Of a stretch of DNA of 64,000 nt, positions 39,718 through 54,212 are shown in pieces (position 1 is the first letter of the stretch; each line of letters opens with the position of its first letter). The stretch is from NCBI GenBank assembly GCA_965232515.1, contig CBDDPY010000002.1:2496001-2560000 (forward strand). Reading direction: 5' to 3'. The notes under the pieces were generated by a model. It saw only the letters and a list, made by a program, of their open reading frames with translations, made no database searches and was not told the origin of the DNA. This DNA comes from Alphaproteobacteria bacterium (GTDB lineage Bacteria > Pseudomonadota > Alphaproteobacteria > GCA-2731375). Both the position numbers and the translations under genes were made by a program.

Positions 39718-40809
39718 TCAGGTCGATGACTGACGGTCCGATGCCGTTCCAAGTTGATCCAGCCACCACAGCTGAGGCAGCGCCGCCCGCCCATAGGCCC
39801 CGGCCTTCTGGCGCCCGCACCGCGCCGACGCGACGGCCTCCATCGCATCGATCGGCGAAATGCCGAACCGCTCGCGGAAGCTGCGGCTGAAGTGGCTGGC
39901 ATCGAAGAAGCCGAGACGTTCGGCGACGCGGCTGATGCGGCCGCGCTGTGGCGGGCCCGCGGAAAGCAGCGTAAAGGCGCGGTCCAATCGCCGGTCCCAG
40001 AGATAGCGCGCAACGCCGCCATGGTCGGCGAAACAGCGATAGATCGTCGCCCGCGACGCGTTGAACGTCCGGAACAACTCACCGGTCTCGAAATAGGGAT
40101 TCTCGAGATTCTCGTCGATGTAGCGCCGCATGGCCTGAGCCAGCGAGGCATTCCACCCCGCCGTGGTATCGTCCGGCGGCTGTGCGCCATCGGTGTCCGA
40201 TCCGCCCAGCAGAAATGCCCGGATCAATCCCAACAGACCGTTGGCCAGTGCCTCGGCCTCGCCGACCTTGGCGTTCGGCAGGGCATCGATCAGACCGTTC
40301 AAGGCCGCGACCAGGACGCGGCCCGTCGACGTATCGGTTGAATCCGTGATCGTGTCCCCGTGCCGGCGCCGATCGAAACCGATCGCCTCGCGGGGAATGA
40401 TGACGGTGGTGTGCCGGACCGCTGAGTTGACGACCCGAAACGGCAACGACATGTCGGCCAGATGCAGATTGCCTGGCCCCAGGCAGATCAGGTCGTCGCC
40501 GACAATGCCCTTCGCGAAACCGCTTTGGTAGTGCCACAGCACGACGAACTCGGCGGACAGGCCGGCAAGGTGTTCGGCGCGGCGCTCGGATATGCGGGCG
40601 CTGGCCTGGGTTTCCATCACCGCGATCTGGCCAAGCTGCCAGGAACGGATCCGGGCAGCGACGTTTTCGCGCTCTTGCGGCGCGACCTTCATGTCGATGA
40701 TGTCCCGCGCTGCTGTATGCCAGGCCTCGAACCGGTCTTCCGGCCCGAAGGCGGCGAGATCGAAACACCGCACCGGCAGGCGGTCGTCGGCGACAGTGTT
40801 CTCAGGCAT
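39718..40809 (-). CDS. AraC family regulator (FeaR-like sensing domain)
   Basis: DRFEAW, SRATIYR and GFFDASHFSRSFRERFGISP motifs. Confidence 0.88.
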   Translation of the reverse strand: MPENTVADDRLPVRCFDLAAFGPEDRFEAWHTAARDIIDMKVAPQERENVAARIRSWQLGQIAVMETQASARISERRAEHLAGLSAEFVVLWHYQSGFAKGIVGDDLICLGPGNLHLADMSLPFRVVNSAVRHTTVIIPREAIGFDRRRHGDTITDSTDTSTGRVLVAALNGLIDALPNAKVGEAEALANGLLGLIRAFLLGGSDTDGAQPPDDTTAGWNASLAQAMRRYIDENLENPYFETGELFRTFNASRATIYRCFADHGGVARYLWDRRLDRAFTLLSAGPPQRGRISRVAERLGFFDASHFSRSFRERFGISPIDAMEAVASARCGRQKAGAYGRAALPQLWWLDQLGTASDRQSST

Positions 40810-41237
40810 GAAACAAACGCCCCGTCGGCTCATGGGGCATCGGAACATGCCGGCTGCGGGCCGGCAGAATCTTGGCTTGGCGCATCAGTCGTTACCCGTT
40901 TCAAAGACCTGTTCAACACCCTTCAGTGTCTCTACCAAGCCCACGGGATCCGACCAACCAGCTATGATCACTGGTTTGTATTTTGAGATTTGTTGCGACA
41001 ACAAATCACGACTTAGCGCGACAATCAAATACATTATCGTTTCGCGACGAAATCTTCCTTGCATCGTGGACCGATCGAACATCAAACGACCAGAGGTCGT
41101 TGCCGACGCCGCGGCCGCCATTTATCCCCAATCTTGTAGACTTGCCAAATGAATAGCTGCTCTGCACATCAGTATACAAATCCATCCATAAGGCGTATGA
41201 TTTAAGAGCATCAATAAAACTCATAGAGAGGCTGAAG

Positions 41238-41723
41238 ATGATTAAGCCAGCTACGAGTTTTATGTTGTGTTCTTTTCTAGTTTTATTCCCCTTCGATAAG
41301 TTATCGGCGGCCGAGTACGACCTGACCGGCTCGAACTGCTATCATGGCGAATACAACGTCATAGTCAGAGGCAAGGGCGATTTCTCGCTCAGCTATGTCC
41401 TGCACGGCGCATCAACCTACGACGACGAAAGCGTTCCATTCCGTCACATGGCGACACGCTGCGTCGGCCTTTATGCGCTCAGGAACGGCGAGATCGAATC
41501 ATATGCGCACTGCGAGATGATCGACGGCGACGGCGACAAGCTCTTCGTCCTCGGAAATGCGCGCGGTCAGCAAAACAGCGGGACGTTTCCCGGCGGGACG
41601 GGCAAATTTGAAGGTGTCACGGGCACGTTCACCTCCGAACCCGTTGGGCGTTTTCCCGAGCCCGAAGAGCGTAACTTCGTTGCCTGCCGCCGGCATCACC
41701 ACACGTTCACGCTGCCCGATTGA
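41238..41723 (+). CDS. Secreted hypothetical protein (paralogue 1)
   Basis: Signal peptide, GAGAGG RBS, DGDGDKLF and GGTGKF motifs, four mature Cys. Confidence 0.75.
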   Translation: MIKPATSFMLCSFLVLFPFDKLSAAEYDLTGSNCYHGEYNVIVRGKGDFSLSYVLHGASTYDDESVPFRHMATRCVGLYALRNGEIESYAHCEMIDGDGDKLFVLGNARGQQNSGTFPGGTGKFEGVTGTFTSEPVGRFPEPEERNFVACRRHHHTFTLPD

Positions 41724-41780
41724 GGTCCGGTTCGATTTACGTAACCGGGAACGCAACAACACATCTCGAGGAGAACGATC

Positions 41781-42260
41781 ATGCTGAACAGGTATGTCAT
41801 GTCCGCCCTCGTGGCGTGTACGGGTTTGACCTTTGGCGCATCAGGCGCCGTTGCTGGTGATGTGAGTTGGCGAAGTTGCTGGGCCGGCACGAGCCAGACC
41901 GTCGTGCGCGGCGAAGGCGACCTCTCTTTCAGCACGGTGTTTTTCGGAACCACGGTGACCGATGATCCGGCGGATAAGCTGCACATGTCGTCCTTCAAAT
42001 GTGTGTCGGCGGGCGACATCCACGGCGGGAAGGCGGTCAGTACCGGCTATTGCCAGTCGGTGGACGCCGACGGCGACAAGTTCTTTTCGACCTACGAAGT
42101 GGTCGACGGCGCCGGTCCCCTGACGTTTACCGGCGGTACGGGCAAGTTCGACAAGGGCTCGGGCGTCGTTCAGATAAAGACGATTGGGCAGTTCCCGGGC
42201 ATTGAGTCGGGCAAGTTCCAGGGCTGCAACAACGGAAAGGGGTCCTACACCCTCCGCTAG
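41781..42260 (+). CDS. Secreted hypothetical protein (paralogue 2)
   Basis: Signal peptide, GAGGAG RBS, DADGDKFF and GGTGKF motifs, same four Cys. Confidence 0.78.
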   Translation: MLNRYVMSALVACTGLTFGASGAVAGDVSWRSCWAGTSQTVVRGEGDLSFSTVFFGTTVTDDPADKLHMSSFKCVSAGDIHGGKAVSTGYCQSVDADGDKFFSTYEVVDGAGPLTFTGGTGKFDKGSGVVQIKTIGQFPGIESGKFQGCNNGKGSYTLR

Positions 42261-42284
42261 CTGCCGGCCAACGGATCCGCCGCC

Positions 42285-43010
42285 TCAGATCTGCCGGTCG
42301 CGGATGGCGATAATGGCGGCGTGGTGCTTGTTGCGGGCGCCGAGCTTTCGCACCGCCTTGCCCAGGTGATAATTCACCGTCGAGGCGGCGACGCAGATGA
42401 TCTCGGCGATCTCGTCGGTGGTCTTGCCCTCGGCGGTCCAGCGCAGGCATTCGCGCTCGCGCGCCGACAGCGCCGGCATGGCGGTCGTCTCGTCGCCGCG
42501 CAGAAAGCCGATCATCCGGTCGTGCACCTGCACCGCGGTCAGCTGTAGTGCGTTGCGTCGCACCGCGACGGCATCCACTAGGTCCCGGCTGCGGGTGCCG
42601 ACCACCGAGAACACGCCGATATCGCCGTCCGGCCCCGAGACCGGCACGGAATAGCCGTTGACGATGCGGAACTCGCGCGCCTCGTAGAAGATCTGCCGCT
42701 GTGACTTGCGGAACGGCCGGAGGAAGCCATCGCTGCCCCAGGTGAACGGCAGGCGCGATCGCGCGCCCAGATCGGCGACGGGGTCGTAGAGCTTGTAGGA
42801 CCGGCCGAGATAGCGGCTGCGCCATTCCTCGGGATAGTTCGTGACCAGCGTGGAATCGGTGTTGCCGCGCGACGAACGCGGCATGCGCAGAACAAGGTAG
42901 GAGTAGTACGGCAGCCCCAGATCGCCGACATAGCGCTCCAAGACCCGGCCGACCTCGTCCGGCGAGCCGCAGGTCTCAAACGGATTATGATCGATCGCCG
43001 GCAATGACAT
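42285..43010 (-). CDS. LuxR-family quorum-sensing receptor (autoinducer-binding domain plus HTH), no adjacent luxI
   Basis: TNYPEEWRSRY, DPV, PFTW, NGYSVP and LSARERECLRWTAEGKT motifs; start at MSLPAIDH. Confidence 0.92.
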   Translation of the reverse strand: MSLPAIDHNPFETCGSPDEVGRVLERYVGDLGLPYYSYLVLRMPRSSRGNTDSTLVTNYPEEWRSRYLGRSYKLYDPVADLGARSRLPFTWGSDGFLRPFRKSQRQIFYEAREFRIVNGYSVPVSGPDGDIGVFSVVGTRSRDLVDAVAVRRNALQLTAVQVHDRMIGFLRGDETTAMPALSARERECLRWTAEGKTTDEIAEIICVAASTVNYHLGKAVRKLGARNKHHAAIIAIRDRQI

Positions 43011-43239
43011 TTGTCTTGCTGCTTTGTGGCCACCCCGCCGTGCCGCCGAACGGTAACATCCGGATTGGCCCGGCAACAAGACAGCGACGACCGGTAATTC
43101 GAAGCAGGAATGCGCCATTTCAAGCCGTTTTCGGCCGAAATCGCGTGCTTTTTGCAAACTTTGCCAGTGTACGGCCGGCTTTGGCGGTGCTTTTCTGAAG
43201 GTTCGACCGATGACAAGGCTTCTGACAGGGAGAACAGAC

Positions 43240-44493
43240 ATGTCGTCACTCAGAAATCGGGGTCGCCGCTGGGCCGCCACCGTCGGTGTCGCGGGCGGGA
43301 TCGCCGTGGCCGCCTGGTCGGGCGCGCTGGCCGACACCGTCAAGATCGGCGTGCTGGCGCCGCTGACCGGTCCGTCGGCGTCGGACGGCGAGGAATTCGT
43401 GCGCGGGGTCGAATGGGCCGTCGAGGAGGCGAACGCCAAGGGCGGCGTTGCCGGCCATACCTTCGAGGTCGTGGTCGCCGACGTGAAGGACCATTCCGCC
43501 GCCAACGTCAGCAGCGCCGCCGAACGCCTGCTCGGCACCGATGGCGTGCACGTGATCCTGACGGGCTACGCCAGCCTGTCGATGTTCGAGGTCGATCTCA
43601 TGGCCGAGGCCGGCATGCCCTATCTCGCCGCCGGGCCGTCGCCGTCCTTCGCCGCCATCGTCTCGCAGGACCCGGACTATTACTGGTGCTGCTGGTCCTA
43701 CACCGCGTCCTTCAAGGGCTACGAGACCGACGTGCTGCCGGCGATCGAGAGCCTGGGCGCGCAGGGCAAGATCGCCATCCGCGACAAAAAAGTCGCGATG
43801 ATCTCGTCCGACAACCCCTATTCCAAGACCATCTCGGAGGGCATGAAGAAGGTCTTCGACGCCGCCGGCTGGCAGATCACCGTCGACGAGATGGTGCCGT
43901 TCGGCGAGGTCGGCGACTGGCGCGCGATCCTCGCGAAAGTCCGCCAAGACCCGCCGGATCTGGTCATCAACACCGACTATCTGCCCGGCAATTCGGCGCT
44001 GTTCCTGAAGCAGTTCCTGGAGAAGCCGACCGACAGCGTCGTCTTCCTGCAATACGCGCCGTCGGTGCCCGAGTTCGTCGAGCTGACCGGGGCGCAGTCG
44101 ACGGGCGTGCTCTACAACCTGATCGGCGGGCCGCTGGATTCGCCGGGCTGGCCGCGCGGCCAGAAGCTGATGCGCGCTTTCGAAGAACGCTATGGCGTGA
44201 CATCGGGCGCCTACGGCGTCGGCCTCTACGAGATGACCAACATGTATTTCATGGCGCTGGAAAAAGTCGGCGACCCGACCGACCACGAGGCCATCGGCCG
44301 CACCATCGGCACGCTGAAGACCGACTCCGTCGCCGGGCCCATCGAGTTCGATCCGGCGACGCACGTGGCGCTGCAAAGCGACGACCACGTGCCGGTGTCG
44401 TTCTGGCAGATCTGGGACGGCGATCGCGTGCTGATCAAGCCCGACAAGTACGCCAACGGCGATTTCCGGCTGCCGCCCTGGATCGCGCAATAG
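43240..44493 (+). CDS. Liv/HAAT-family ABC substrate-binding protein
   Basis: Signal peptide, KIGVLAPLTGPSASDG and NAKGGVAG motifs; GGGAGA RBS. Confidence 0.9.
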   Translation: MSSLRNRGRRWAATVGVAGGIAVAAWSGALADTVKIGVLAPLTGPSASDGEEFVRGVEWAVEEANAKGGVAGHTFEVVVADVKDHSAANVSSAAERLLGTDGVHVILTGYASLSMFEVDLMAEAGMPYLAAGPSPSFAAIVSQDPDYYWCCWSYTASFKGYETDVLPAIESLGAQGKIAIRDKKVAMISSDNPYSKTISEGMKKVFDAAGWQITVDEMVPFGEVGDWRAILAKVRQDPPDLVINTDYLPGNSALFLKQFLEKPTDSVVFLQYAPSVPEFVELTGAQSTGVLYNLIGGPLDSPGWPRGQKLMRAFEERYGVTSGAYGVGLYEMTNMYFMALEKVGDPTDHEAIGRTIGTLKTDSVAGPIEFDPATHVALQSDDHVPVSFWQIWDGDRVLIKPDKYANGDFRLPPWIAQ

Positions 44494-44526
44494 CCGGCGT
44501 CACGCGCTGGTGTAACCTGCTTGGCC

Positions 44527-45273
44527 ATGGCTGAGGGGGGCAGAGAAACGCTGTTCCGCGCCGAGGGACTGGTCAAATCCTTCGGCGCGCTGACCGCGGT
44601 CGACGACGTCGGCTTCGCGGTCGCGGCCGGCGAGATCCTCGGCATCGCCGGCCCGAACGGCAGCGGCAAGAGCACGCTGTTCAATATCATCACCAACGTG
44701 CCGTTCCGGGCCGACCGCGGCCGCGTCGTCTTCGAGGGCCGGGAGATCCAATCGCTGCCCGGCCACGAGATCTGCCGCCGCGGCCTCGCCCGCACCTTCC
44801 AGCGCGAGAGCGTGTTCGCTAGCCTGCGCGCCATCGACAACGTGCTGACCGCCATCGAGCATAGCGGCGGGCGCGGCACCCAGGCCGAGAACGAGGCCCG
44901 GGCCGAGGCCGCGCTCGACCGCGTCGGCTATCCCGGCACCATGCACAACACGTTGGCGGGCGGCCTGCCGGTGTTCTTCCGCAAGCAGGTGATGATCGCC
45001 AGCGCCATGGCGCTCGGGCCCCGCCTCCTGCTGCTGGACGAGCCCGCCTCCAGCCTGACCCAGGCCGAGGTCGACCGCATGCGCGACCTGATTCTCGGCC
45101 TGCGCGATGCCGGCGTGACGATCCTGTTGATCGAGCATGTTCTGCCGCTGCTGACCGCTGTGTCGGACCGCCTGATCGTCCTCGACCAGGGCCGCCTGAT
45201 CGCCGAGGGCGCGCCGCGCGACGTCGTGCGCGACCCGCGCGTGGTCGAGGCCTATCTCGGGGTCGCCCCATGA
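44527..45273 (+). CDS. LivG-like ABC ATPase
   Basis: GPNGSGKST, ARTFQ, LLLDEP, IEH and VVEAYLG motifs; degenerate signature motif. Confidence 0.9.
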   Translation: MAEGGRETLFRAEGLVKSFGALTAVDDVGFAVAAGEILGIAGPNGSGKSTLFNIITNVPFRADRGRVVFEGREIQSLPGHEICRRGLARTFQRESVFASLRAIDNVLTAIEHSGGRGTQAENEARAEAALDRVGYPGTMHNTLAGGLPVFFRKQVMIASAMALGPRLLLLDEPASSLTQAEVDRMRDLILGLRDAGVTILLIEHVLPLLTAVSDRLIVLDQGRLIAEGAPRDVVRDPRVVEAYLGVAP

Positions 45274-46064
45274 CCGGCGCCGCGCCGTTGCTGGAGTTGC
45301 GCAAGCTGTCGGGCGGCTACGAGCCGATCCAGATCTTCCGCGACGTCGACCTGCGCGTCGATCCCGACAGCAGCATCGGCCTGTTCGGCCCCAACGGCCA
45401 CGGCAAGACCACGTTGCTGCGCACCGTCAGCGGCATCATCGACCCCTGGTCCGGCGATATCTTCTTCGACGGCCAGCGCCTGAACCGCGAAGGCGAGCGC
45501 GGCAGCCGCCGCTCGCGCAACTTCAACTACGACGCCGTGCGCCGCCGCCGCATGGATCCGAAAACGGTCGCGCGGGCCGGCCTGATCCAGGTGCCGCAGG
45601 GCAACCTGCTGTTCCCGGAGATGACCGTGGCCGAGACCCTGTCGGTGGCGCCGGCCGCCGCCGCCGGCCGCGCCGACGCCAAGGAATCGCTCGCCCGCGT
45701 GCACGACCTGTTCCCGCGCCTGCACGAGCGCCGCGACCAGAAGATCCGCTTTCTGTCCGGCGGCGAGCGGCAGATGGTCGCGGTCGGCGTCGGCCTGATG
45801 GCGGCGCCCAAGCTATTGATCCTGGACGAGCCGACACTGGGCCTGTCGCCGAAGCTGCGCCTGGAGCTGTGCGACGCGATCCGCGCTATCCAGGCCTCTG
45901 GCGTGCCGCTGATCGTCGTCGACCAGGACGTCGAGTTCCTGGAGCAGATCATCGATACGCTCTACCTGTTCGACCACGGCAGCATCTCCGGCCGCATCGA
46001 CAAATCGGACATGCCGTCGCACGCCGAGATCATGGCGATGCTGTTCGGCGAGCCGGCCGCATGA
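45270..46064 (+). CDS. LivF-like ABC ATPase
   Basis: GPNGHGKTT, LFPRL.ER, LSGGERQM and LDEPTLGLSP motifs. Confidence 0.9.
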   Translation: MTGAAPLLELRKLSGGYEPIQIFRDVDLRVDPDSSIGLFGPNGHGKTTLLRTVSGIIDPWSGDIFFDGQRLNREGERGSRRSRNFNYDAVRRRRMDPKTVARAGLIQVPQGNLLFPEMTVAETLSVAPAAAAGRADAKESLARVHDLFPRLHERRDQKIRFLSGGERQMVAVGVGLMAAPKLLILDEPTLGLSPKLRLELCDAIRAIQASGVPLIVVDQDVEFLEQIIDTLYLFDHGSISGRIDKSDMPSHAEIMAMLFGEPAA

Positions 46065-46945
46065 CCGCCGAAACGTTCATGTTCGTCACGGCCGGCGGCC
46101 TGGTCCTGGGCGCGCTCTACGCCCTGATGGCGACCGGCCTTGCCGTCGTCTGGACCACGTTGGGCATCTTCAACTTCGCCCACGGCGCCTTCATCGCCGC
46201 CGGCGCCTATATCGCCTGGCAGGTCGGCGGCGCGCTCGGCGACGCGGTCGTCGCCGGCGCCCTCGCCGCCGTCGCCTTCATGTTCGTCATCGGCGTTCTG
46301 TTCCACGTGCTGCTGGTGCGGCCGTTCGAGCGGCAGCCCAACCTGGTGCTGATTTCCGTCATCACCACGCTCGCCGGCGCCGCCGTCCTTGAAAACCTGC
46401 TGAACGTGATCTGGGGCGCGCGCTCGAAGCAGATCCCGCCGCTCGCGGCCGGCGACCTCACGGCCTTCGGCGTCACCGTCTCGCACAACGAGGCCGTGCT
46501 GCTCGTCGTCGTGCTGGTGATCCTGGCGCTGCTCGGCTACTTCCTGCGCCGCACACCCCAGGGTCGGGCCATGCGCGCCGTCGCCCAGAACCGCGAGGCG
46601 GCCCAGCTCATGGGCCTCGACGTGCCGCGCCTCTACGCGCTCGCCTTCGGCCTGTCGGCGGCGCTCGCCGGGCTCGCCGGCGTGTTCATCGGCTCGATCC
46701 GCTTCATGACGCCCACGATGGGATCGGACCCGCTGCTGAAGGCCCTGATCGTCGTCATCTTCGGCGGCATCGCCCGCTTCACCAGCCCGATCTACGCCGC
46801 CTTCATCGTCGGCATGGTCGAGGCCTTCTCGACCTACTATGTCGGCCTCTACTGGACCCCCGCGGTGCTGTTCGCGCTGATGATCGCCGTGCTGATCGCC
46901 AAGCCCGAAGGCCTGTTCGGCAAATACCAGCGGTCGGTGCAGTGA
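46061..46945 (+). CDS. LivH-like ABC permease
   Basis: GALYALMATGL, FNFAHG and GRAMRAVAQN motifs; ATGA overlap. Confidence 0.9.
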   Translation: MTAETFMFVTAGGLVLGALYALMATGLAVVWTTLGIFNFAHGAFIAAGAYIAWQVGGALGDAVVAGALAAVAFMFVIGVLFHVLLVRPFERQPNLVLISVITTLAGAAVLENLLNVIWGARSKQIPPLAAGDLTAFGVTVSHNEAVLLVVVLVILALLGYFLRRTPQGRAMRAVAQNREAAQLMGLDVPRLYALAFGLSAALAGLAGVFIGSIRFMTPTMGSDPLLKALIVVIFGGIARFTSPIYAAFIVGMVEAFSTYYVGLYWTPAVLFALMIAVLIAKPEGLFGKYQRSVQ

Positions 46946-46955
46946 GACAAAAACG

Positions 46956-48809
46956 GTGAGATACGACCCGCCCTTCCACCGCGGCAACGGCCTGATCCCG
47001 GTGCTGATCGCGCTCGCCGCGCTCGCGGTCTTCCCGCTCATCGTCACCGACAGCTATTCGCGGCATCTCCTGATCCTGGCCTTCGTCTTCGCCGTCGTCG
47101 CGTCCAACTGGGATCTCAGCCTCGGCTTCGGTGGCCTGTTCAACTTCGCGCATGTGGCGCTGTTCGCCATCGGCGTCTACACCTACGGCATTGCCGCCAA
47201 GACGCTCGGCGTCTCGCCCTGGCTGGCGATCCCGCTGGGTGGGCTCGTCGCCCTGGCCGTCGCGGCCACCATCGCGTTGCCCGTGCTCCGGCTCGACGGG
47301 ATCTATGTGATCCTGGTGACGCTCGCCTTCTCGCAGCTGATCTATCAGGTCGTGATCAGCCAGTCCGACATCACCGGCGGCACCTCCGGCATGGTCACCC
47401 TGCCGGCGCTCAAGCTCGGCGACTACCGCTTCGTGCGCGACGGCAAGATCGGCTACTACTATATCGGCCTGGCGCTGCTCGTCGCCTCGACGGCGTTCCT
47501 GTATACCTTCACGCGCTCGCGCTTCGGCCGCGCTATCGTCGCGCTGCGCGACAACAAGTACTACGCGATGTCGCGCGGCATCTCCGAGGCCCGCACGCGG
47601 TTGCTGACCCTGATGGCGAGTGCGCTGTTCACCGGCATCGCCGGCGGCTTCTACGGGTCCTACGTACGCGTCGCCTCGCCCGACGCCTTCGGCCTCGGGT
47701 TTCTCACCCTGCTGCTCAGCATCCTGCTGCTGGGCGGCGCCGGCACGATCTGGGGCCCGGTCATCGCCGCCTTCGTCATCACGCTGCTGTCGGAGGCCAT
47801 CGCCGACCTCGGCGCCTGGCGCAACATCGTCATCGCCGCGCTGATCGTCGTGATCATGGTGTTCTATCCCGGCGGCATCTGGGCCGCCCTGCAGGAGCTG
47901 CGCGAATTCGCCGACGTCAAGCGCACGACGTTCCGCGCCTGGCGTCGCCGGCGGCGCGAAAAGCGCGCGCGCGAGGCCCGCCTCGGCGCCCGCGAGCGCA
48001 TGCTCAAAACGGCGCATGGCGACATCGCCATGGCCGACAGCGGCGGCGACGGACCGCCCATCCTGCTGATCCACGGCAACTCTTCCTGCAAGGAGGTCTT
48101 CGCGCATCAGTTCGCCGCCTTCCGCGACGACCACCGGCTGATCGCCTTCGACCTGCCGGGCCACGGCGTCTCCACGAACGGCGACCCCGAGACCGACTAC
48201 ACCGTCAGCGCCTATGCCGAGATCGCCGAGGCCGTGCTCGACGCGGCGCAAGCGGAAAACCCTGTTGTGCTCGGCTGGTCCCTCGGCGGCTATGTCGCGC
48301 TCGAGCTCGCCGCCCGCGGCCGACGCCCGATCCGCGGCCTCGCCATCACCGGCACGTCACCGCTGAACATCGTGCCCGACGATTTCGGCGCCGGCTACGA
48401 TGCCCACTCGCATGTCGTGCTGGCCGGCAAGCAGTTCTTCTCGGCGCACGAACGCCGCACCTTCGCCGCCGCCACCGCCGGGCCGTACAACGCCGACAGC
48501 GCCTTCCTGCACGACACCGTCGGCCGCACCGACGGCCGCGCCCGCTACTACATGATCGGCAAGCTGCCGGTCATCGACTGGCCGCGCCAGATGCGCATGC
48601 TGCGCGACGGCACCCTGCCGTTCGCCATCCTGAACGGCGCCCGGGACCCGTTCCTGAACCACGCCTATATCGCCGGCCTGACCTATGGCGATATCTGGAC
48701 CGGCCGGCCGCACGACATTCCCGACACCGGCCACGCGCCGTTCTACACCAAGCCGCAGGAATTCAACGCCGCCTTCCGCCGCTTCATGCAAGAGGCCTGC
48801 GGCCTCTAG
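46956..48809 (+). CDS. LivM-like permease fused to an AidH-like alpha/beta hydrolase
   Basis: First ~320 aa form the permease (SRFGRAIVALRDN, GGAGTIWGP, PGGI). From nt 48000 the hydrolase follows (IHGNSS, DLPGHG, GWSLGG, RTDGRAR, GHAPF). No stop codon in between. Confidence 0.9.
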   Translation: MRYDPPFHRGNGLIPVLIALAALAVFPLIVTDSYSRHLLILAFVFAVVASNWDLSLGFGGLFNFAHVALFAIGVYTYGIAAKTLGVSPWLAIPLGGLVALAVAATIALPVLRLDGIYVILVTLAFSQLIYQVVISQSDITGGTSGMVTLPALKLGDYRFVRDGKIGYYYIGLALLVASTAFLYTFTRSRFGRAIVALRDNKYYAMSRGISEARTRLLTLMASALFTGIAGGFYGSYVRVASPDAFGLGFLTLLLSILLLGGAGTIWGPVIAAFVITLLSEAIADLGAWRNIVIAALIVVIMVFYPGGIWAALQELREFADVKRTTFRAWRRRRREKRAREARLGARERMLKTAHGDIAMADSGGDGPPILLIHGNSSCKEVFAHQFAAFRDDHRLIAFDLPGHGVSTNGDPETDYTVSAYAEIAEAVLDAAQAENPVVLGWSLGGYVALELAARGRRPIRGLAITGTSPLNIVPDDFGAGYDAHSHVVLAGKQFFSAHERRTFAAATAGPYNADSAFLHDTVGRTDGRARYYMIGKLPVIDWPRQMRMLRDGTLPFAILNGARDPFLNHAYIAGLTYGDIWTGRPHDIPDTGHAPFYTKPQEFNAAFRRFMQEACGL

Positions 48810-48841
48810 CGTCGCCGCGCCGGCTCCGCCACACTTGGGCC

Positions 48842-49375
48842 ATGACCACGATCGACACCGACCACCTGCTGCTGCGCCCGTTCGAACCGGAAGACGTCGA
48901 CGCCTACGCCGCGATCCGCGCCAAGCCCGAGGTCGTTCGCTACCTGCCCGGCGGACCCGAGAGCGCCGCCAACGCCCGGGCCAAAGCCGAACAGCTCATC
49001 CCCACCTTCGTCACCGCCTGGCGCGACCCGGGCTACGGCCCCTGGGCCGTGATCGAGCGTGCAACCGATCGACTGATCGGCCATGCCGGCCTGCGCCTGG
49101 TGCCCGAGCTCGGCGGCGAGACCGAGATCCTCTACATGCTCGACAGCGCCTGCTGGGGCCGCGGCTACGCCACAGAGGCGGCCGAGGCCGCCTGCCGCTA
49201 CGGCTTCGAGACCCTCGGTCTCGACCGCCTGATCGCGCTTGCCCTGCCCGAGAACGCCGGCTCGATCCGCGTCATGCAAAAGCTCGGCATGACCGCCGAC
49301 GGCCCGTTCGAGGCCTTCGGCATTTCCGGCATTCGTTATGTCCTTCGCCGGGATCAATGGGAGCAGCGGGCTTAG
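48842..49375 (+). CDS. GNAT (RimJ/RimL-like) acetyltransferase
   Basis: WGRGYATEAA and NAGSIRVMQKLGM motifs. Confidence 0.9.
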   Translation: MTTIDTDHLLLRPFEPEDVDAYAAIRAKPEVVRYLPGGPESAANARAKAEQLIPTFVTAWRDPGYGPWAVIERATDRLIGHAGLRLVPELGGETEILYMLDSACWGRGYATEAAEAACRYGFETLGLDRLIALALPENAGSIRVMQKLGMTADGPFEAFGISGIRYVLRRDQWEQRA

Positions 49376-49643
49376 CCCGCCTTTCTCACCACCCTCATGG
49401 TCTGCGTCGGGCACAGGCGTCTGCTCCGCCAGGAGCGGGCCGAAAAGCGTAGCGGGGACTACGGTTGAGGGCCGCGACGCCGCGGGCGGGCGCCTGCGCG
49501 CGACCCTTCGGGCGGCGCCGTGCTGCCGACAGGGGGCGTCGCGCTGCTTGCCCGATGCCCCACATCGCGCCGCGCAGCGCTCCTGCCCTGTCGGCAGCAC
49601 GACGCCGCGCAGACCATGAGGGTGGTGAGAAAGGCGGGCATAG
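49373..49643. mobile_element. MITE-like non-autonomous element, copy 1
   Basis: Terminal inverted repeats of ~32 bp (GCCCGCCTTTCTCACCACCCTCATGGTCTGCG); near-identical inverted copy at 55272-55543. Confidence 0.85.
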
Positions 49644-49728
49644 CCCAACGGCCTGTTCGCGCCCCGCCAAAAACGCTTCCTTAAGCCGGACGGCCTAGGC
49701 TCGCACTGGGGGCAAAGCGAGGCCAGCC

Positions 49729-51009
49729 GTGCAAAAACTCCTCGTGGTCGAGGACTCGACCGTCTTCCGCGCCATCGTCGAACAACAGATCGGCCAGGAG
49801 CTCGGCATCGAGCTGGTGCTGGCCGAGACCATGGTCCAGGGCCTCGCCGCCGTCGAGGGCCGGGCCGACGAATTCTTCCTCGCGCTTCTGGACCTGACCC
49901 TGCCCGACGCGCCGAATGGCGAGATCGTCGACGCCATGCTTGGCCGTGGCATTCCGGTTGTCGTCTTCACCTCGCGTTACGACGAAGCCTTGCGCGAGAC
50001 ATTGCTGGCCAAGAACGTCATCGACTATGTGCCGAAGGACAGTCCGGCCAGTCTGAAATACCTCGTTTCCATGGTCCGCCGCATCCAGCGCAACCGCGAG
50101 ACCACGGCGCTGGTCGTCGACGACTCGGCCACGGCGCGACAGCTCGCCCGGCACCTGCTCGAGCTCTATCAGTTCGACGTGCGCGAGGCCGACAGCGGCC
50201 AGGCGGCGCTCGACGCGCTCGAGGCCGAGCCCGGCATCCGCCTCGTCATCACCGACTACAACATGCCGGGGATGGACGGCTTCGAGCTGATCCAGCACCT
50301 GCGCAGGCGCTTCGACCGGGACGAGCTGGCGATCATCGGCGTCTCGGCGGGCGGCGACGCGCCGTTGTCGGCCAAGTTCATCAAGTACGGCGCCAACGAC
50401 TTCCTCAACAAACCGTACCTGCGCGAGGAGTTCTTTTGTCGCATCTCGCAGAACATGGAGATGCTGGACAACATCCGCGCGTTGCGCGAGGCCGCCGGTA
50501 AGGACTTCCTGACCGGCCTGCCCAACCGCCGGTCGTTCTTCGAGATCGCCGGCGCGCTGCACGCCGCGGCCCGCCGCGACGGCGCCCGCGCCTTCGCCGC
50601 GATGATCGATGTCGATCATTTCAAGCGGGTCAACGACACCCACGGCCACGACGCCGGCGACGCCGTGCTGCGCGAAATCGGCCGTCTCCTGCCGTCTCTG
50701 TTGGTGCGCGAGTCCGACGTCGTCGCCCGGCTCGGCGGCGAGGAGTTCGCGGTCTTCGCCTACGACGTGACGCCGGAGACCGCGGCCTCGTTTTTCGAAT
50801 CGGTCCGGCAGGCGGTCGCCGACGCCGTCATCGCCACGCCGGCGGGCGCCCTCAACGTCACCGTCAGCATCGGCGTCAGCTGCCGGATCGGCGACAGCCT
50901 GCAGCACATGCTGAACGCCGCCGACGCCTGCCTCTACGACGCCAAGGCCGCCGGCCGCGACCGCGTCGTCTCCGACGCCGAACCCGCCGACCTCATGGCG
51001 GTGATCTGA
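49729..51009 (+). CDS. REC-REC-GGDEF diguanylate cyclase
   Basis: Two receiver domains (LLDLTLPD, ITDYNMP), DFLTGLPNRR, RESD I-site and GGEEF. Confidence 0.93.
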   Translation: MQKLLVVEDSTVFRAIVEQQIGQELGIELVLAETMVQGLAAVEGRADEFFLALLDLTLPDAPNGEIVDAMLGRGIPVVVFTSRYDEALRETLLAKNVIDYVPKDSPASLKYLVSMVRRIQRNRETTALVVDDSATARQLARHLLELYQFDVREADSGQAALDALEAEPGIRLVITDYNMPGMDGFELIQHLRRRFDRDELAIIGVSAGGDAPLSAKFIKYGANDFLNKPYLREEFFCRISQNMEMLDNIRALREAAGKDFLTGLPNRRSFFEIAGALHAAARRDGARAFAAMIDVDHFKRVNDTHGHDAGDAVLREIGRLLPSLLVRESDVVARLGGEEFAVFAYDVTPETAASFFESVRQAVADAVIATPAGALNVTVSIGVSCRIGDSLQHMLNAADACLYDAKAAGRDRVVSDAEPADLMAVI

Positions 51010-51162: not shown

Positions 51163-52287
51163 TCAGTTCGGATTAGTCGGCCCACCCAAAAACCAATCCA
51201 AAATCCGTGCGTTCTCCTCGCGCGGATAGGTGTGCGACAGGTCGGCGATCTCGCGGTAGGTGACGTCGGCGCCGGCGGTGCTCAAGGCGCTCCGCGCGCT
51301 CCGCGCGATCTCGATGTTGAACATCCAGTCCAGCGCGCCGTGGGTCAGATAGATCGGCAGCCCGGCGATGCGGGGTGCGTCCATCATCTCCATCAGCATC
51401 GGGTGGAAACTGGCCGCGATCGGCGCCAGATGCGTGAACGGCGAATTGGCCCGCAGCCCGCTCACGTAAGCGAACGTGCCGCCATCGCTCATGCCGGTCA
51501 GCAGCAGCCTCTTGGCGTCGACGTTCCAGCGCTCGCCCACATAATCCAGCATGCCGGCGATGTTCTCGCTGTCGACATCCGGCCCCATCAGCGACCAGGT
51601 GCCGCCGCGCGCCGTCGGGCTCAGCACGATCGCGCCGCGGCCGCGCGCCTCGCGCAGCCAGGTCCACAAGAACCCCCGTCCGTGTCCGCTGCCGCCATGC
51701 AGGGCCACGATCAGCGGCCAGGCCGTGTCGGCGTCGTAGTACTCCGGCACATAGAGTGAAAAGCCGCCGCGACTGTCATAGGCGTTGTCGGCATGCATCG
51801 GCCCGACATCAGTCGCCGTCGCCTGACCCTCCCGCAGACGCGCCAGCAACGCTTCGTCGTCGCGCACGCTGTCCTCGAGAAAGAACTGGCTTACCGGCCT
51901 GAGCGCCCGGCTCAGCGGATAGAGCGCCTCCTGCGCCCGTGGCGCGCGGCGCAATGCCCGGTAGGCGGCGATCACCGCGTCGTCGCCGTCCGTGGCCTCT
52001 CGCAGCTCGTCGAAGGCGCGGCAGGTCTGGTCGCTCGCCGCCTCGACCCGCTCGACCGCGCCGCCAAGCGCTGCCGGCCAATCCATGGCCCGGAATGCCG
52101 CCAACCCGTCGCGCAGATCCGCGTCGACATCGCCGACCTCCGCCACCAGCGCGGCCAGGCGCGGCGGATGCAGCTGCCGCGCGACAAAGGCCAGCGCTTC
52201 GAGCGAGGCCAGCAATGGCCGCAGCACGCCGGTCAGCGCCGTGACCTGCGCCTCGCTGTCCCCAACAGGGGTGTCGTCTTGGGTCAT
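51163..52287 (-). CDS. Phospholipase/carboxylesterase-type alpha/beta hydrolase with helical N-terminal domain
   Basis: ALHGGSG, GMSDGG, HGALDW and LSHTY motifs. Confidence 0.82.
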   Translation of the reverse strand: MTQDDTPVGDSEAQVTALTGVLRPLLASLEALAFVARQLHPPRLAALVAEVGDVDADLRDGLAAFRAMDWPAALGGAVERVEAASDQTCRAFDELREATDGDDAVIAAYRALRRAPRAQEALYPLSRALRPVSQFFLEDSVRDDEALLARLREGQATATDVGPMHADNAYDSRGGFSLYVPEYYDADTAWPLIVALHGGSGHGRGFLWTWLREARGRGAIVLSPTARGGTWSLMGPDVDSENIAGMLDYVGERWNVDAKRLLLTGMSDGGTFAYVSGLRANSPFTHLAPIAASFHPMLMEMMDAPRIAGLPIYLTHGALDWMFNIEIARSARSALSTAGADVTYREIADLSHTYPREENARILDWFLGGPTNPN

Positions 52288-52586
52288 GCGTCCCCGCCTC
52301 ACGCCTCCACCGTCGAGTATGTCGCCGCCGCCATGCTGCTGTCACGTCGTTATGGGACCGGCCGTCGCGGCCGACCTCATTTTCATGGCGGCTGACGCGC
52401 TCTCATACATGGCCCGGGCGCGGCCGCCTCGCCTGTGAGCCAGCCCACAAAGATCCAGCAAAAACAAGAGCATATTTCCCACGCAGCGAGATTCGCACCA
52501 GGGCAAAGCCGGTGCGACCCGCCGTGAAAGACCGAAAAGTTGGGGACCCAACGACGCGCCGTTCGCGGCGCCCGGAGGAAGCGATC

Positions 52587-53339
52587 ATGTTCAATCTGGA
52601 TCCCCTGACCCTGCTCGACCGATTGGAGCAGGCCGACGACATCGACAATGCCAGCGCCGTGTTCAGCGACACGCTCGGCGAGAGCGGCCTTTGCGACGGA
52701 TTCTACATGCCGCGCGTGCCGGTCGAATGCCCCCGCGCCCTGGCCGAGCCCGACCTCGATATGCTGACCTTCGGCGCGAGGGTCGGCGGCTCCTATTTCC
52801 CCAGCCTCACGGAGCGCATCCGCGCTCTGCCGTTCGACCCGATCACGGCATACCTGAAGAAAAACGCGCGACCCTGGCTCAAGAACGCCGAGACCGATTG
52901 CGACAAGTCGGCGCTGCTCTACCTGGCCGACATCACCCTCGACCACGGCATCTCGGCCGGCGCGCTGTTTCCTATCCACGGGCCCGGCGGCAGCTACGCG
53001 ATCTATGGCATTTACACGGCGCGAGAGGCCCCGGAGGCCTACCGGACCTTGCGCGACCATATGGCCGCGCTCAACCTCGCCGTGCTCTATTTCCACGGCG
53101 CCTGTCACGCCAGGTTCGCGGCGCCGGCGCCTTGCCGTACGGTCGAGCTCGCGCCGCGCGAACGGGAATGCCTGCATTGGGTCGCGGCCGGTGAGAGCAG
53201 CAAACAGATCGCCTATCGACTCGATCTCTCGACCCACACGGTGAACGAGGTGATCGGCAACGCCATGCGGCGGCTGAAGGCCGCGTCGCGGGCCGAAGCC
53301 GTTGCCAAAGCGATCCTGGCCGGCCTGATCGCCCCTTGA
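52587..53339 (+). CDS. LuxR-family regulator with divergent autoinducer-binding domain
   Basis: DPI, GALFPIHGPGG and LAPRERECLHWVAAGES motifs; GGAGG RBS. Confidence 0.85.
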   Translation: MFNLDPLTLLDRLEQADDIDNASAVFSDTLGESGLCDGFYMPRVPVECPRALAEPDLDMLTFGARVGGSYFPSLTERIRALPFDPITAYLKKNARPWLKNAETDCDKSALLYLADITLDHGISAGALFPIHGPGGSYAIYGIYTAREAPEAYRTLRDHMAALNLAVLYFHGACHARFAAPAPCRTVELAPRERECLHWVAAGESSKQIAYRLDLSTHTVNEVIGNAMRRLKAASRAEAVAKAILAGLIAP

Positions 53340-53441
53340 CCGGGCCCAATTGGACAGGATGCCACCCCTATTTTTGGGGGATCGACCGGAACGTCGGCGC
53401 CCGCCATCTCTTGCCCCAGCTATCTGGGAAAGGATTTGGCT

Positions 53442-54212
53442 ATGTACGAACGATTATCGACGCGTCCGGCCGTGGCATGGAGCCTGGCGATCGTCCTGAC
53501 CACGTTTGGCGGTCTGCCGGCCGTCGCCGTGCCGATCGCCAACATCATGCACGACGCCGCCGGCCGGTCGCAGGCGGCACTGAACTCGGGCGAAACGGAT
53601 TCCGATTCGGACATCACCACGTCGCCCGACGATCTGATCATCTCGGGCGGCAGCCTCGCGCTGACCCAGCCCGGTGTGCAGGGCGCGCTTGCCAGCGGCA
53701 GTGCGCTGTCGCGCATCTCGCTGTTCGATGACACGGCCTCGATCGCCGTGGGTGTCGGCGCCAGCTACAGCCCCAGCTTCTTCGGCGGCGACAATCCGGG
53801 TGGCGACATCGCCGCCGAACTGGAGTCTGTCATCGAGTTCACGGTCGCCGCGCAGGAGGTGTTTTTCGACCTGTTCGCGGTCGAACGCATCAACGGCACG
53901 AATTCGGGCAACTTCACGTCCGTGCTGGAGAATGTCACCGACGGTACCACCCTGTTCTCTCTCGCAACCCCGGTCGGCCGCATCTTCAGTCTCGAGTTCA
54001 CGCTGACCGATGCCGTCGGCGACCTGCTGCGCCTGACCACCATGGGCGAGGCGCTGGCGTCGAGCGAACCAGGCGGATCGTCGGCCACCTTCGACACCGA
54101 CCTGTTCCTGACCATCAGGGCGGTTCCCGAGCCGGGCACGCTCGCCCTGTTCGGTCTGGGTCTGGCCGGTCTCGGCCTTGTCACCCGGCGGCGCGCGCGC
54201 CAGACCGCGTGA
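53442..54212 (+). CDS. PEP-CTERM sorting-domain surface protein
   Basis: Signal peptide, Ser/Thr/Gly/Asp-rich body, C-terminal VPEPGTLALFGLGLAGLGLVTRRRAR. Confidence 0.92.
   Translation: MYERLSTRPAVAWSLAIVLTTFGGLPAVAVPIANIMHDAAGRSQAALNSGETDSDSDITTSPDDLIISGGSLALTQPGVQGALASGSALSRISLFDDTASIAVGVGASYSPSFFGGDNPGGDIAAELESVIEFTVAAQEVFFDLFAVERINGTNSGNFTSVLENVTDGTTLFSLATPVGRIFSLEFTLTDAVGDLLRLTTMGEALASSEPGGSSATFDTDLFLTIRAVPEPGTLALFGLGLAGLGLVTRRRARQTA

Follow-up and report, generated by a model that had tools for sequence, protein, structure and literature searches.

A LuxR-family gene divergent from a HAAT-type importer operon with a permease–AidH-type hydrolase fusion: a candidate module for sensing, importing and inactivating N-acyl-homoserine lactones

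Here, we analysed a 64,000-nucleotide stretch of the genome of an alphaproteobacterium (GenBank assembly GCA_965232515.1, contig CBDDPY010000002.1, positions 2,496,001 to 2,560,000), hereafter the window, in which a gene for a LuxR-family regulator is divergent from a five-gene operon for a HAAT/Liv-type ATP-binding cassette (ABC) importer, and the last gene of this operon encodes a permease fused to an alpha/beta hydrolase of the AidH type. A first-pass annotation, made from the letters of the sequence, had proposed that the organism detects foreign N-acyl-homoserine lactones (AHLs) or related lactones, induces a dedicated importer and hydrolyses the cargo on entry, either to interfere with signalling or to scavenge carbon and nitrogen. 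Passive entry of AHLs into cells is the general assumption, and we know of no dedicated AHL importer that has been described. We examined the locus by domain, structure and residue comparisons, by synteny across related genomes and by a search for regulatory elements, and weighed the resulting interpretation against its alternatives.

Organisation of the locus

The genes and features of the locus are collected in Table 1. Pfam matches and the positions of the open reading frames (ORFs) agree with the first-pass description of a LuxR carrying autoinducer-binding and helix-turn-helix domains, divergent from a five-gene HAAT operon. The operon genes follow one another with gaps of 27, -4, -4 and 10 bp, in that order. 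The gap of 229 bp reported between the LuxR gene and the binding-protein gene holds for the start at ATG 43240, which is preceded by a GGGAG Shine-Dalgarno sequence, and becomes 199 bp when counted from ATG 43210. By Pfam the importer set is complete, with Peripla_BP_6, two BPD_transp_2 permeases and two ATPases, one of which has a BCA_ABC_TP_C tail, and to judge from these matches the importer is of the HAAT type; none of the NCBIfam Liv and Urt equivalogs reached its cut-off on the transporter subunits. The last gene of the operon (46956-48809) is a single frame of 617 amino acids (aa), and an Abhydrolase_1/6 match at residues 367-606 of its product bears out the hydrolase domain that had been read there.

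Table 1. Features of the LuxR–importer–hydrolase locus (positions in the window; models and scores as matched)
Feature	Position	Strand	Evidence and remarks
LuxR-family regulator, 241 aa	42285..43010	-	Pfam Autoind_bind 112.9 bits (N-terminal) and GerE 60.9 bits (C-terminal helix-turn-helix)
Candidate LuxR box TTTTGCAAACTTTGCCAGT	43150..43168	+	Imperfect dyad 6/9 with 1-nt spacer; centre ~81 bp before ATG 43240
HAAT/Liv-type periplasmic binding protein	43240..44493 (alternative start 43210)	+	Peripla_BP_6 152 bits; N-terminal signal peptide
LivG-like ABC ATPase	44521..45273	+	ABC_tran and BCA_ABC_TP_C; LivG model 175 bits, under cut-off
LivF/UrtE-like ABC ATPase	45270..46064	+	ABC_tran 89 bits; UrtE 150 and LivF 134 bits, both under cut-off
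LivH/UrtB-like permease	46061..46945	+	BPD_transp_2 131.7 bits
LivM-like permease half of the fusion, residues 1-315	46956..47900	+	BPD_transp_2 140 bits, residues 38-301
Arg/Lys-rich linker of the fusion, residues 316-350	47901..48005	+	Predicted cytoplasmic; 16 K/R within 60 residues past the last membrane segment
AidH-family serine alpha/beta hydrolase domain, residues 351-617	48006..48809	+	N375 oxyanion, S442 nucleophile (GWSLG), D564 acid, H593 base
GNAT acetyltransferase	48842..49375	+	Acetyltransf_3, Pfam 132 bits; 33 bp downstream of the fusion gene

The hydrolase domain and its fusion to the permease

AidH is a metal-independent N-acyl-homoserine lactonase of Ochrobactrum sp. T63, proven by biochemistry and structure, with the catalytic triad Ser102/His248/Glu219 and an oxyanion hole formed by Asn33 and Leu103, as described in PMC3532132. 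When the hydrolase domain was searched against the sequences of all solved structures, six AidH entries matched at E ~1e-55 (best 2.4e-55), while the next solved protein followed at 4e-16. The AlphaFold model of the domain (predicted local distance difference test score, pLDDT, 93.4) is predicted to form an alpha/beta-hydrolase core with a helical cap, in a fold close to that of AidH; AidH chains took ranks 1-8 of the fold comparison, with a TM score of 0.91, a root-mean-square deviation of 1.8 Å and 38-39% identity, and the next protein scored TM 0.78. The residues N375, W441, S442, L443, D564, F566 and H593 are the equivalents of AidH N33, W101, S102, L103, E219, F221 and H248, and none of them varies in an alignment of 76 fused proteins (76/76). 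All triad and oxyanion-hole positions of AidH are thus occupied, with D564 as the acid where AidH has Glu219. Moreover, the cap-domain motif RTDGRAR is common to both proteins, and the positions that line the acyl-chain tunnel of AidH are still hydrophobic or aromatic in the fused proteins. Taken together, these results agree with the earlier assignment that the hydrolase is AidH-type, and lactonase activity of the domain is suggested by its residues and its modelled fold.

In the hydropathy profile, the last membrane segment of the permease half lies at about residues 291-309. The linker that follows was found in every aligned fused homologue, and the hydrolase part has no signal peptide. Given how basic this linker is just past the membrane, the hydrolase would be cytoplasmic. 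The fusion gene is present as two ORFs at two loci from metagenome-assembled genomes (MAGs) (L099, 10001-11871; L105, 10001-11891), which could be due to a frameshift or an assembly error. Standalone AidH-like hydrolases with 35-37% identity to the window domain were also seen in Variovorax paradoxus VAI-C (CP063167.1, 451688-452515), beside a divergent helix-turn-helix regulator, and on the plasmid pAtS4b of Allorhizobium ampelinum, typed as conjugative, directly adjoining repC; further such homologues from Allorhizobium/Agrobacterium plasmids have similar positions in their records.

The LuxR-family regulator and the missing luxI

The closest solved relatives of the LuxR are RhlR, TraR, QscR, LasR and SdiA. 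The TraR residues Y53, W57, Y61, D70, P71, W85 and G113 are kept as Y59, W63, Y67, D76, P77, W91 and G119, and these seven hallmark positions are unvaried in 56 of 56 sequences in an alignment of the window LuxR with 55 locus-linked orthologues; at the equivalent of TraR E178, 52 sequences have E, 3 have Q and 1 has a gap. Since the seven TraR-type positions are kept, the LuxR carries the signature of acyl-HSL-binding receptors, in line with the ability to sense AHLs that the first-pass annotation had ascribed to it, and its ligand is probably an AHL.

A scan of the whole genome for PF00765 (LuxI family) found nothing in the 64-kb window, as had been noted before. The sole match in the genome (30 bits) lies 2.3 Mb from the locus, and both ORFs at that place are PEP-CTERM/exosortase-associated acyltransferases (TIGR03694, 249 and 281 bits). 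Because this is the only PF00765 place, we regard the LuxR as a true solo in the source genome, which comprises 7.39 Mb at 96% completeness. At genome coordinates 4828747-4832220 there are two tandem PEP-CTERM/exosortase-associated acyltransferases, distant LuxI relatives, and a second LuxR-like gene in the window region 52512-53339 (+) / 53436-54212 (+), with a weak and partial autoinducer-binding match of 34.7 bits and some EpsA likeness, adjoins a PEP-CTERM protein. Together they look like a separate exosortase-linked regulatory pair.

Conservation of the fusion and of its pairing with LuxR

The fusion protein is represented by at least 120 database clusters with 62-93% identity and at least 97% coverage, both domains being present in all of them, and when one genome per species was scanned, at least 315 species-level genomes had a stretch encoding it. 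The comparisons of loci rest on the best 80 of these 315 stretches. Eleven of the 80 had no binding-protein gene owing to a contig end and one had less than 900 bp upstream, which left 68 assessable loci. In 55 of the 68, a LuxR orthologue with 37-51% identity lies divergently upstream of the binding-protein gene. By their record titles, the LuxR-bearing loci span Rhodobacteraceae (Rhodobacterales), several families of Hyphomicrobiales, Rhodospirillales-type genomes and Sneathiellales, and the carriers are mostly alphaproteobacterial, many of them marine or from soil. Clustering of all flanking ORFs identified LuxR as the only conserved gene flanking the operon, and the LuxR-bearing loci share no conserved catabolic gene besides the hydrolase. 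Among 60 relatives of the source organism, the full fusion was found only in G033, which belongs to another family, and LuxR is present there too. Such recurrence indicates that the pairing of LuxR with the operon is more than chance; the observation is real and non-random, and the association of homologous operons with LuxR, on which the first-pass interpretation had been staked, is borne out.

A candidate operator upstream of the operon

By de novo k-mer and expectation-maximization searches of the 55 intergenic regions between LuxR and the operon, we identified a conserved, partly palindromic element of 18-20 bp whose spacing upstream of the binding-protein gene is constant. Its best-conserved part is the right half, TTTGC(C/T)AGT; in some genera the whole element is a palindrome, for instance ACTAGCAGATTTGCTAGT, and the window carries the copy TTTTGCAAACTTTGCCAGT. 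The box scored above the best of 275 shuffles in 49/55 intergenic regions, a circular test, since these very regions had been used to train the matrix. Two further comparisons were less circular. Across 1.48 Mb of loci, read on both strands, 42 of the 59 matches of at least 16 bits were at the conserved place, and at this threshold no box was found upstream of the operon at any of the 13 LuxR-less loci; the box therefore co-occurs with LuxR. In the whole genome (7.39 Mb), the window site scored 29.2 bits and the runner-up 21.9.

From these patterns, we read the box as a putative LuxR operator. Its one clear best site in the genome suggests a dedicated local regulator, and fits a substrate-responsive local regulator better than a global quorum-sensing regulator. 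LuxR would probably act here by activation rather than repression. The canonical lux box CTG-N10-CAG was rejected as the operator, as fewer than half of the intergenic regions contain it and its place varies among them. Neither a consensus sigma-70 promoter nor a plus-strand terminator-like site was found in 42100-49800; the sigma-70 consensus is usually absent from activator-dependent promoters.

Two sets of contigs from RNA libraries contain pieces over the LuxR gene and all operon genes at 90 to >99% identity, the longest pieces listed being about 91-98% identical to the locus. One of these contigs spans 47995-49298, across the junction of the fusion and GNAT genes, which by itself does not prove a single transcript. 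As DNA carry-over is possible in such libraries, they are weak evidence of expression; two poly(A) runs yielded no reads at all, which is no test of it.

The binding protein and neighbouring genes that hint at the cargo

The model of the binding protein has a pLDDT of 92.1. Its closest solved match is the structural-genomics entry 3h5l (TM 0.86-0.90, 32% identity), and all other solved matches, including the ligand-bound ones, are at most 23% identical.

Genes adjoining the operon in relatives offer another clue. A second-copy threonine synthase gene (thrC) lies directly after the fusion gene, about 1 base apart, in seven Rhodobacteraceae loci (L035, L044, L046, L047, L051, L075 and L078; 218.9 against an equivalog cut-off of 167.1). 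Two thrC copies above the cut-off were present in 4/4 genomes searched from that group, three of which are among the seven loci. Moreover, an N-acyl-amino-acid deacylase of the ArgE/DapE type directly precedes the operon in 11 loci, ten of them LuxR-less and the other being L106. These neighbours fit a cargo that contains N-acylated homoserine, and the hint carries modest weight because the genomes are related and the independent events few. Some Rhodobacteraceae loci also have an M20D amidohydrolase gene a few kb further downstream; it was not counted, as in L051 it is on the opposite strand beside minus-strand ORFs.

Related loci lacking LuxR or the fusion

Thirteen of the 68 assessable loci have no LuxR. 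The ArgE/DapE-type deacylase is upstream in 10 of these, and eight of the ten also have an AraC regulator. The eight are from Mesorhizobium, Tianweitania and Aquamicrobium genomes and one Alphaproteobacteria MAG (L105); the ArgE-type gene directly precedes the operon on the same strand (452 bits against a cut-off of 412), with an Amidohydro_2 gene also upstream beside the AraC regulator. An aminotransferase was confirmed in L060, the sole locus scanned for that gene. Two further LuxR-less loci, in Nitratireductor and Hoeflea, are unfused, and the one scanned (L103) shows an ArgE/DapE deacylase, FGase and RpiR; the remaining three have unrelated neighbours.

Within the family of the source organism, genomes G008 and G021 have an unfused operon with an AidH-like gene 1-9 kb away and no LuxR. 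Both operons are accompanied by RpiR or AraC regulators, that of G008 also by M20, amidase, Amidohydro_1, isochorismatase and glutamine-synthetase-like genes, and that of G021 by a DUF2817 gene. The scavenging of carbon and nitrogen, which the first-pass annotation had offered as an alternative, is favoured by the deacylase and AraC neighbours for the LuxR-less lineages.

Genes adjoining the module

The GNAT gene downstream of the fusion gene possibly belongs to the operon as its sixth gene. No BLAST counterpart of it was found in any of the 80 loci. A GNAT gene of other Pfam subfamilies occupies the same position after the fusion in the relative G033 (L025:181-894, -); the two proteins show no BLAST similarity to each other, and the other loci have no GNAT there. 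That a GNAT follows the fusion gene in both genomes could be coincidental, or it could reflect accessory steps that are analogous.

The stretch at 40500-42260, immediately behind the LuxR gene, has a GC content of 0.54-0.55, compared with about 0.65-0.70 around it, and none of the three ORFs in this stretch (40592-41152, 41238-41723 and 41781-42260) has a Pfam match. An RNA-library contig of a related strain extends over 41500-42299. Downstream of the operon are genes for a PleD-like response regulator with a GGDEF domain (49729-51009, +) and an esterase resembling polyhydroxybutyrate (PHB) depolymerases (Abhydrolase_2/DLH; 51163-52302, -); GGDEF genes near the locus were also seen in L042, L048 and L055.

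Discussion

The gene content, the fusion, the catalytic and ligand-contact residues, the synteny and the co-occurrence of the box with LuxR are directly established, and the following mechanism is built upon them. LuxR would bind an AHL, and the AHL-bound regulator would act at the partly palindromic box, some 80 bp ahead of the binding-protein gene, to activate the divergent operon. The periplasmic binding protein would capture the AHL and deliver it to the LivH/LivM-type permease pair, powered by the two ATPases. The AidH-type lactonase, tethered through the basic linker at the cytoplasmic end of the LivM-type permease, would then open the homoserine-lactone ring of the emerging cargo, leaving an inactive N-acyl-homoserine. 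We consider it an even question whether AHL sensing, active AHL import and lactonolysis are indeed joined here in a self-contained module. The first-pass interpretation survives each computational test that was run, and overall it is partly supported.

Where the signal comes from depends on the carrier. In the source genome, where no AHL synthase is encoded, the signals would come from other organisms, and eavesdropping on foreign AHLs is the natural reading, as the first-pass annotation had it. This does not extend to the carriers in general: LuxI-family genes are present in 25 of 30 carrier genomes scanned (19/22 with LuxR at the locus and 6/8 without), and the solo status of LuxR does not hold for most of the other carriers. 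As 19 of the 22 LuxR-bearing carriers have LuxI-family genes of their own, turnover of a self-made signal is as likely as eavesdropping; the module may serve such turnover in other carriers, most of which could equally clear their own signal.

These synthase counts call for caution, and several further points weigh against AHL clearance as the function of the module. Alpha/beta hydrolases at 38-39% identity often differ in substrate, and homologues nearer to the domain than AidH, mostly standalone proteins of about 270 aa, are abundant (n=1745 at E <=1e-20, many of them 40-46% identical). AidH itself was not among the matches listed in a set of 120 homologues of the domain; on sequence grounds, it is the sole characterised member of a broad family and not a close orthologue. 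In AidH, Tyr160 forms a hydrogen bond with the ring oxygen of the lactone, and activity falls strongly when this residue is replaced (PMC3532132); it aligns without gaps to Phe503 of the window protein, and of the 76 fused proteins 45 have Y at the position, 29 have F and 2 have L, with no clean correlation between Tyr or Phe at residue 503 and the presence of LuxR in the fused homologues. None of the three plasmid-borne standalone genes of the AidH type that were inspected, from Variovorax paradoxus VAI-C, Allorhizobium pAtS4b and Rhizobium johnstonii, adjoins a HAAT transporter. The ligands known for HAAT binding proteins are amino acids, urea, amides, pyroglutamate, keto acids and aromatic acids, and the title of 3h5l, which alone is close, names no ligand, so that no ligand was inferred from structure. 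The dyad symmetry of the box is weak in many loci, reaching 6/9 in the window, at least 6/9 in 29/55 loci and at least 7/9 in 13/55. The contexts of the LuxR-less and unfused operons point to catabolism of an N-acylated or esterified amino compound, which could be something other than an AHL. Finally, several AHL-degrading enzymes may have other natural substrates, as discussed in PMC3859601.

Much of this would also be expected if the operon served nutrient uptake under quorum control, with the AHL as a mere cue of density or neighbours and the cargo an esterified, lactonised or N-acylated amino-acid derivative that the hydrolase de-esterifies. The range of ligands known for HAAT binding proteins, the variable equivalent of Tyr160 and the deacylase, amidase, aminotransferase, FGase and glutamine-synthetase-like genes around the LuxR-less or unfused relatives, under AraC or RpiR regulators, all agree with this explanation, and the LuxI-family genes of most LuxR-bearing carriers make control by their own quorum sensing feasible. 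However, the one hydrolase of this family that has been characterised is an AHL lactonase, the LuxR-bearing loci share no conserved catabolic gene besides the hydrolase, one site of the box clearly stands out as the best in the source genome, and that genome, having no AHL synthase, can make no density cue of its own. We consider quorum-controlled nutrient uptake unlikely, though a serious contender. The alternative that the same sequence of sensing, import and hydrolysis handles a ligand other than an acyl-HSL, such as free homoserine lactone, another gamma-lactone or an N-acyl amino-acid ester, which this LuxR subfamily as well as the binding protein would recognise, draws on the existence of LuxR solos with non-AHL ligands, many of them ungrouped (PMC4338825), on the thrC and deacylase neighbours, which suit any homoserine-containing compound, and on the silence of the 3h5l title about a ligand. 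It has to contend with the seven AHL-type residues of LuxR, unvaried in all 56 sequences, whereas many diverged solos in the survey groups are substituted at W57, Y61 or D70 (PMC4338825, Tables 3-4), and with the conserved hydrophobic tunnel positions of AidH, which suit an acyl chain; we judge it improbable.

A chance adjacency, in which an unrelated LuxR solo lies beside an ordinary branched-chain amino-acid transporter with an accidental fusion, is hardly credible. Liv-type operons are common in general, and the source genome alone has 14 permease matches, but the pair is kept in 55 of 68 loci over several alphaproteobacterial orders, the box co-varies with the presence of LuxR, and no fewer than 120 protein clusters hold the fusion over its whole length with 62% identity or above; the counts already refute chance.

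If the proposal of AHL sensing, import and lactonolysis is correct, some bacteria are regulated sinks for the signals of their neighbours or their own, and the AHL fields of natural communities are shaped by active sinks besides diffusion and secreted or cytoplasmic enzymes. For marine and soil communities, models of how far signals reach, of eavesdropping and of quorum quenching would change accordingly, the widespread LuxR solos would gain a concrete role in sensing the substrate of a signal-removal operon, and a compact three-part quenching cassette would be on offer. The binding protein, the hydrolase domain, and LuxR with its box can each be expressed and assayed separately, which makes the module easy to test.

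Comparison with known systems

In the literature searched (AHL lactonases or AidH with transporters, LuxR or uptake), we found no description of a LuxR combined with a HAAT importer and a fused AidH-type hydrolase, in agreement with the first-pass annotation, which knew of no such system. Nor does such a LuxR group appear in the portions consulted of the main tables of a survey of LuxR solos, which leaves 385 solos ungrouped and lists them with 20-bp palindromes in its supplement, where this group may already be included (PMC4338825). The nearest known relatives resemble the module in part.

The window domain and AidH are alike in fold and cap, in the GWSLG nucleophile elbow, the HGN oxyanion motif and the catalytic His, and in RTDGRAR. 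They differ in sequence (38-39% identity), in the acid, which is Glu in AidH and Asp here, and in Tyr160, which is Phe here. Moreover, AidH is a free soluble protein of 271-279 aa, whereas the window domain is the C-terminal part of a protein that begins as a LivM-type permease.

In XccR/OryR-type solos the ligand-binding residues are altered, and the response is to compounds from plants. These solos adjoin a hydrolase gene, pip (proline iminopeptidase), which they regulate through a lux-box-like site (PMC4338825), much as the window LuxR is proposed to regulate the operon next to it. In contrast to the window locus, these pairs include no transporter, and pip is, as far as compared, no relative of AidH. 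BlcR of Agrobacterium is an IclR-type regulator. The BlcR/BlcC (AttM) system, like further lactonase operons induced by their substrate, is similar to the module in that an AHL-active lactonase comes from an inducible catabolic operon and its natural substrate is debated, as presented in PMC3859601. It is different in having a metallo-beta-lactamase-type enzyme, no dedicated importer and no LuxR.

QsdH of Pseudoalteromonas byunsanensis is similar to the fusion described here, since an AHL lactonase domain and an inner-membrane transporter are joined in one polypeptide. However, its enzyme is a GDSL hydrolase that is N-terminal and predicted to be periplasmic, its transporter is an RND efflux pump, and the abstract mentions no LuxR partner.

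The Lsr system, with the importer LsrACDB, the kinase LsrK, the regulator LsrR and the enzymes LsrF/G, imports autoinducer-2 (AI-2) from the medium under a signal-responsive regulator and destroys the signal in the cytoplasm. Lsr differs from the window module in its signal, AI-2, in its ribose-type CUT2 transporter, in a repressor that senses the phosphorylated signal and in enzymes that are not fused to the transporter. The two share a logic, in which an ABC importer clears a signal, a regulator responds to it and enzymes destroy it. It is possible, though we lean slightly towards doubt, that the module is the AHL counterpart of Lsr, which would make it the first dedicated high-affinity active AHL importer, switched by LuxR and handing its cargo directly from permease to lactonase.

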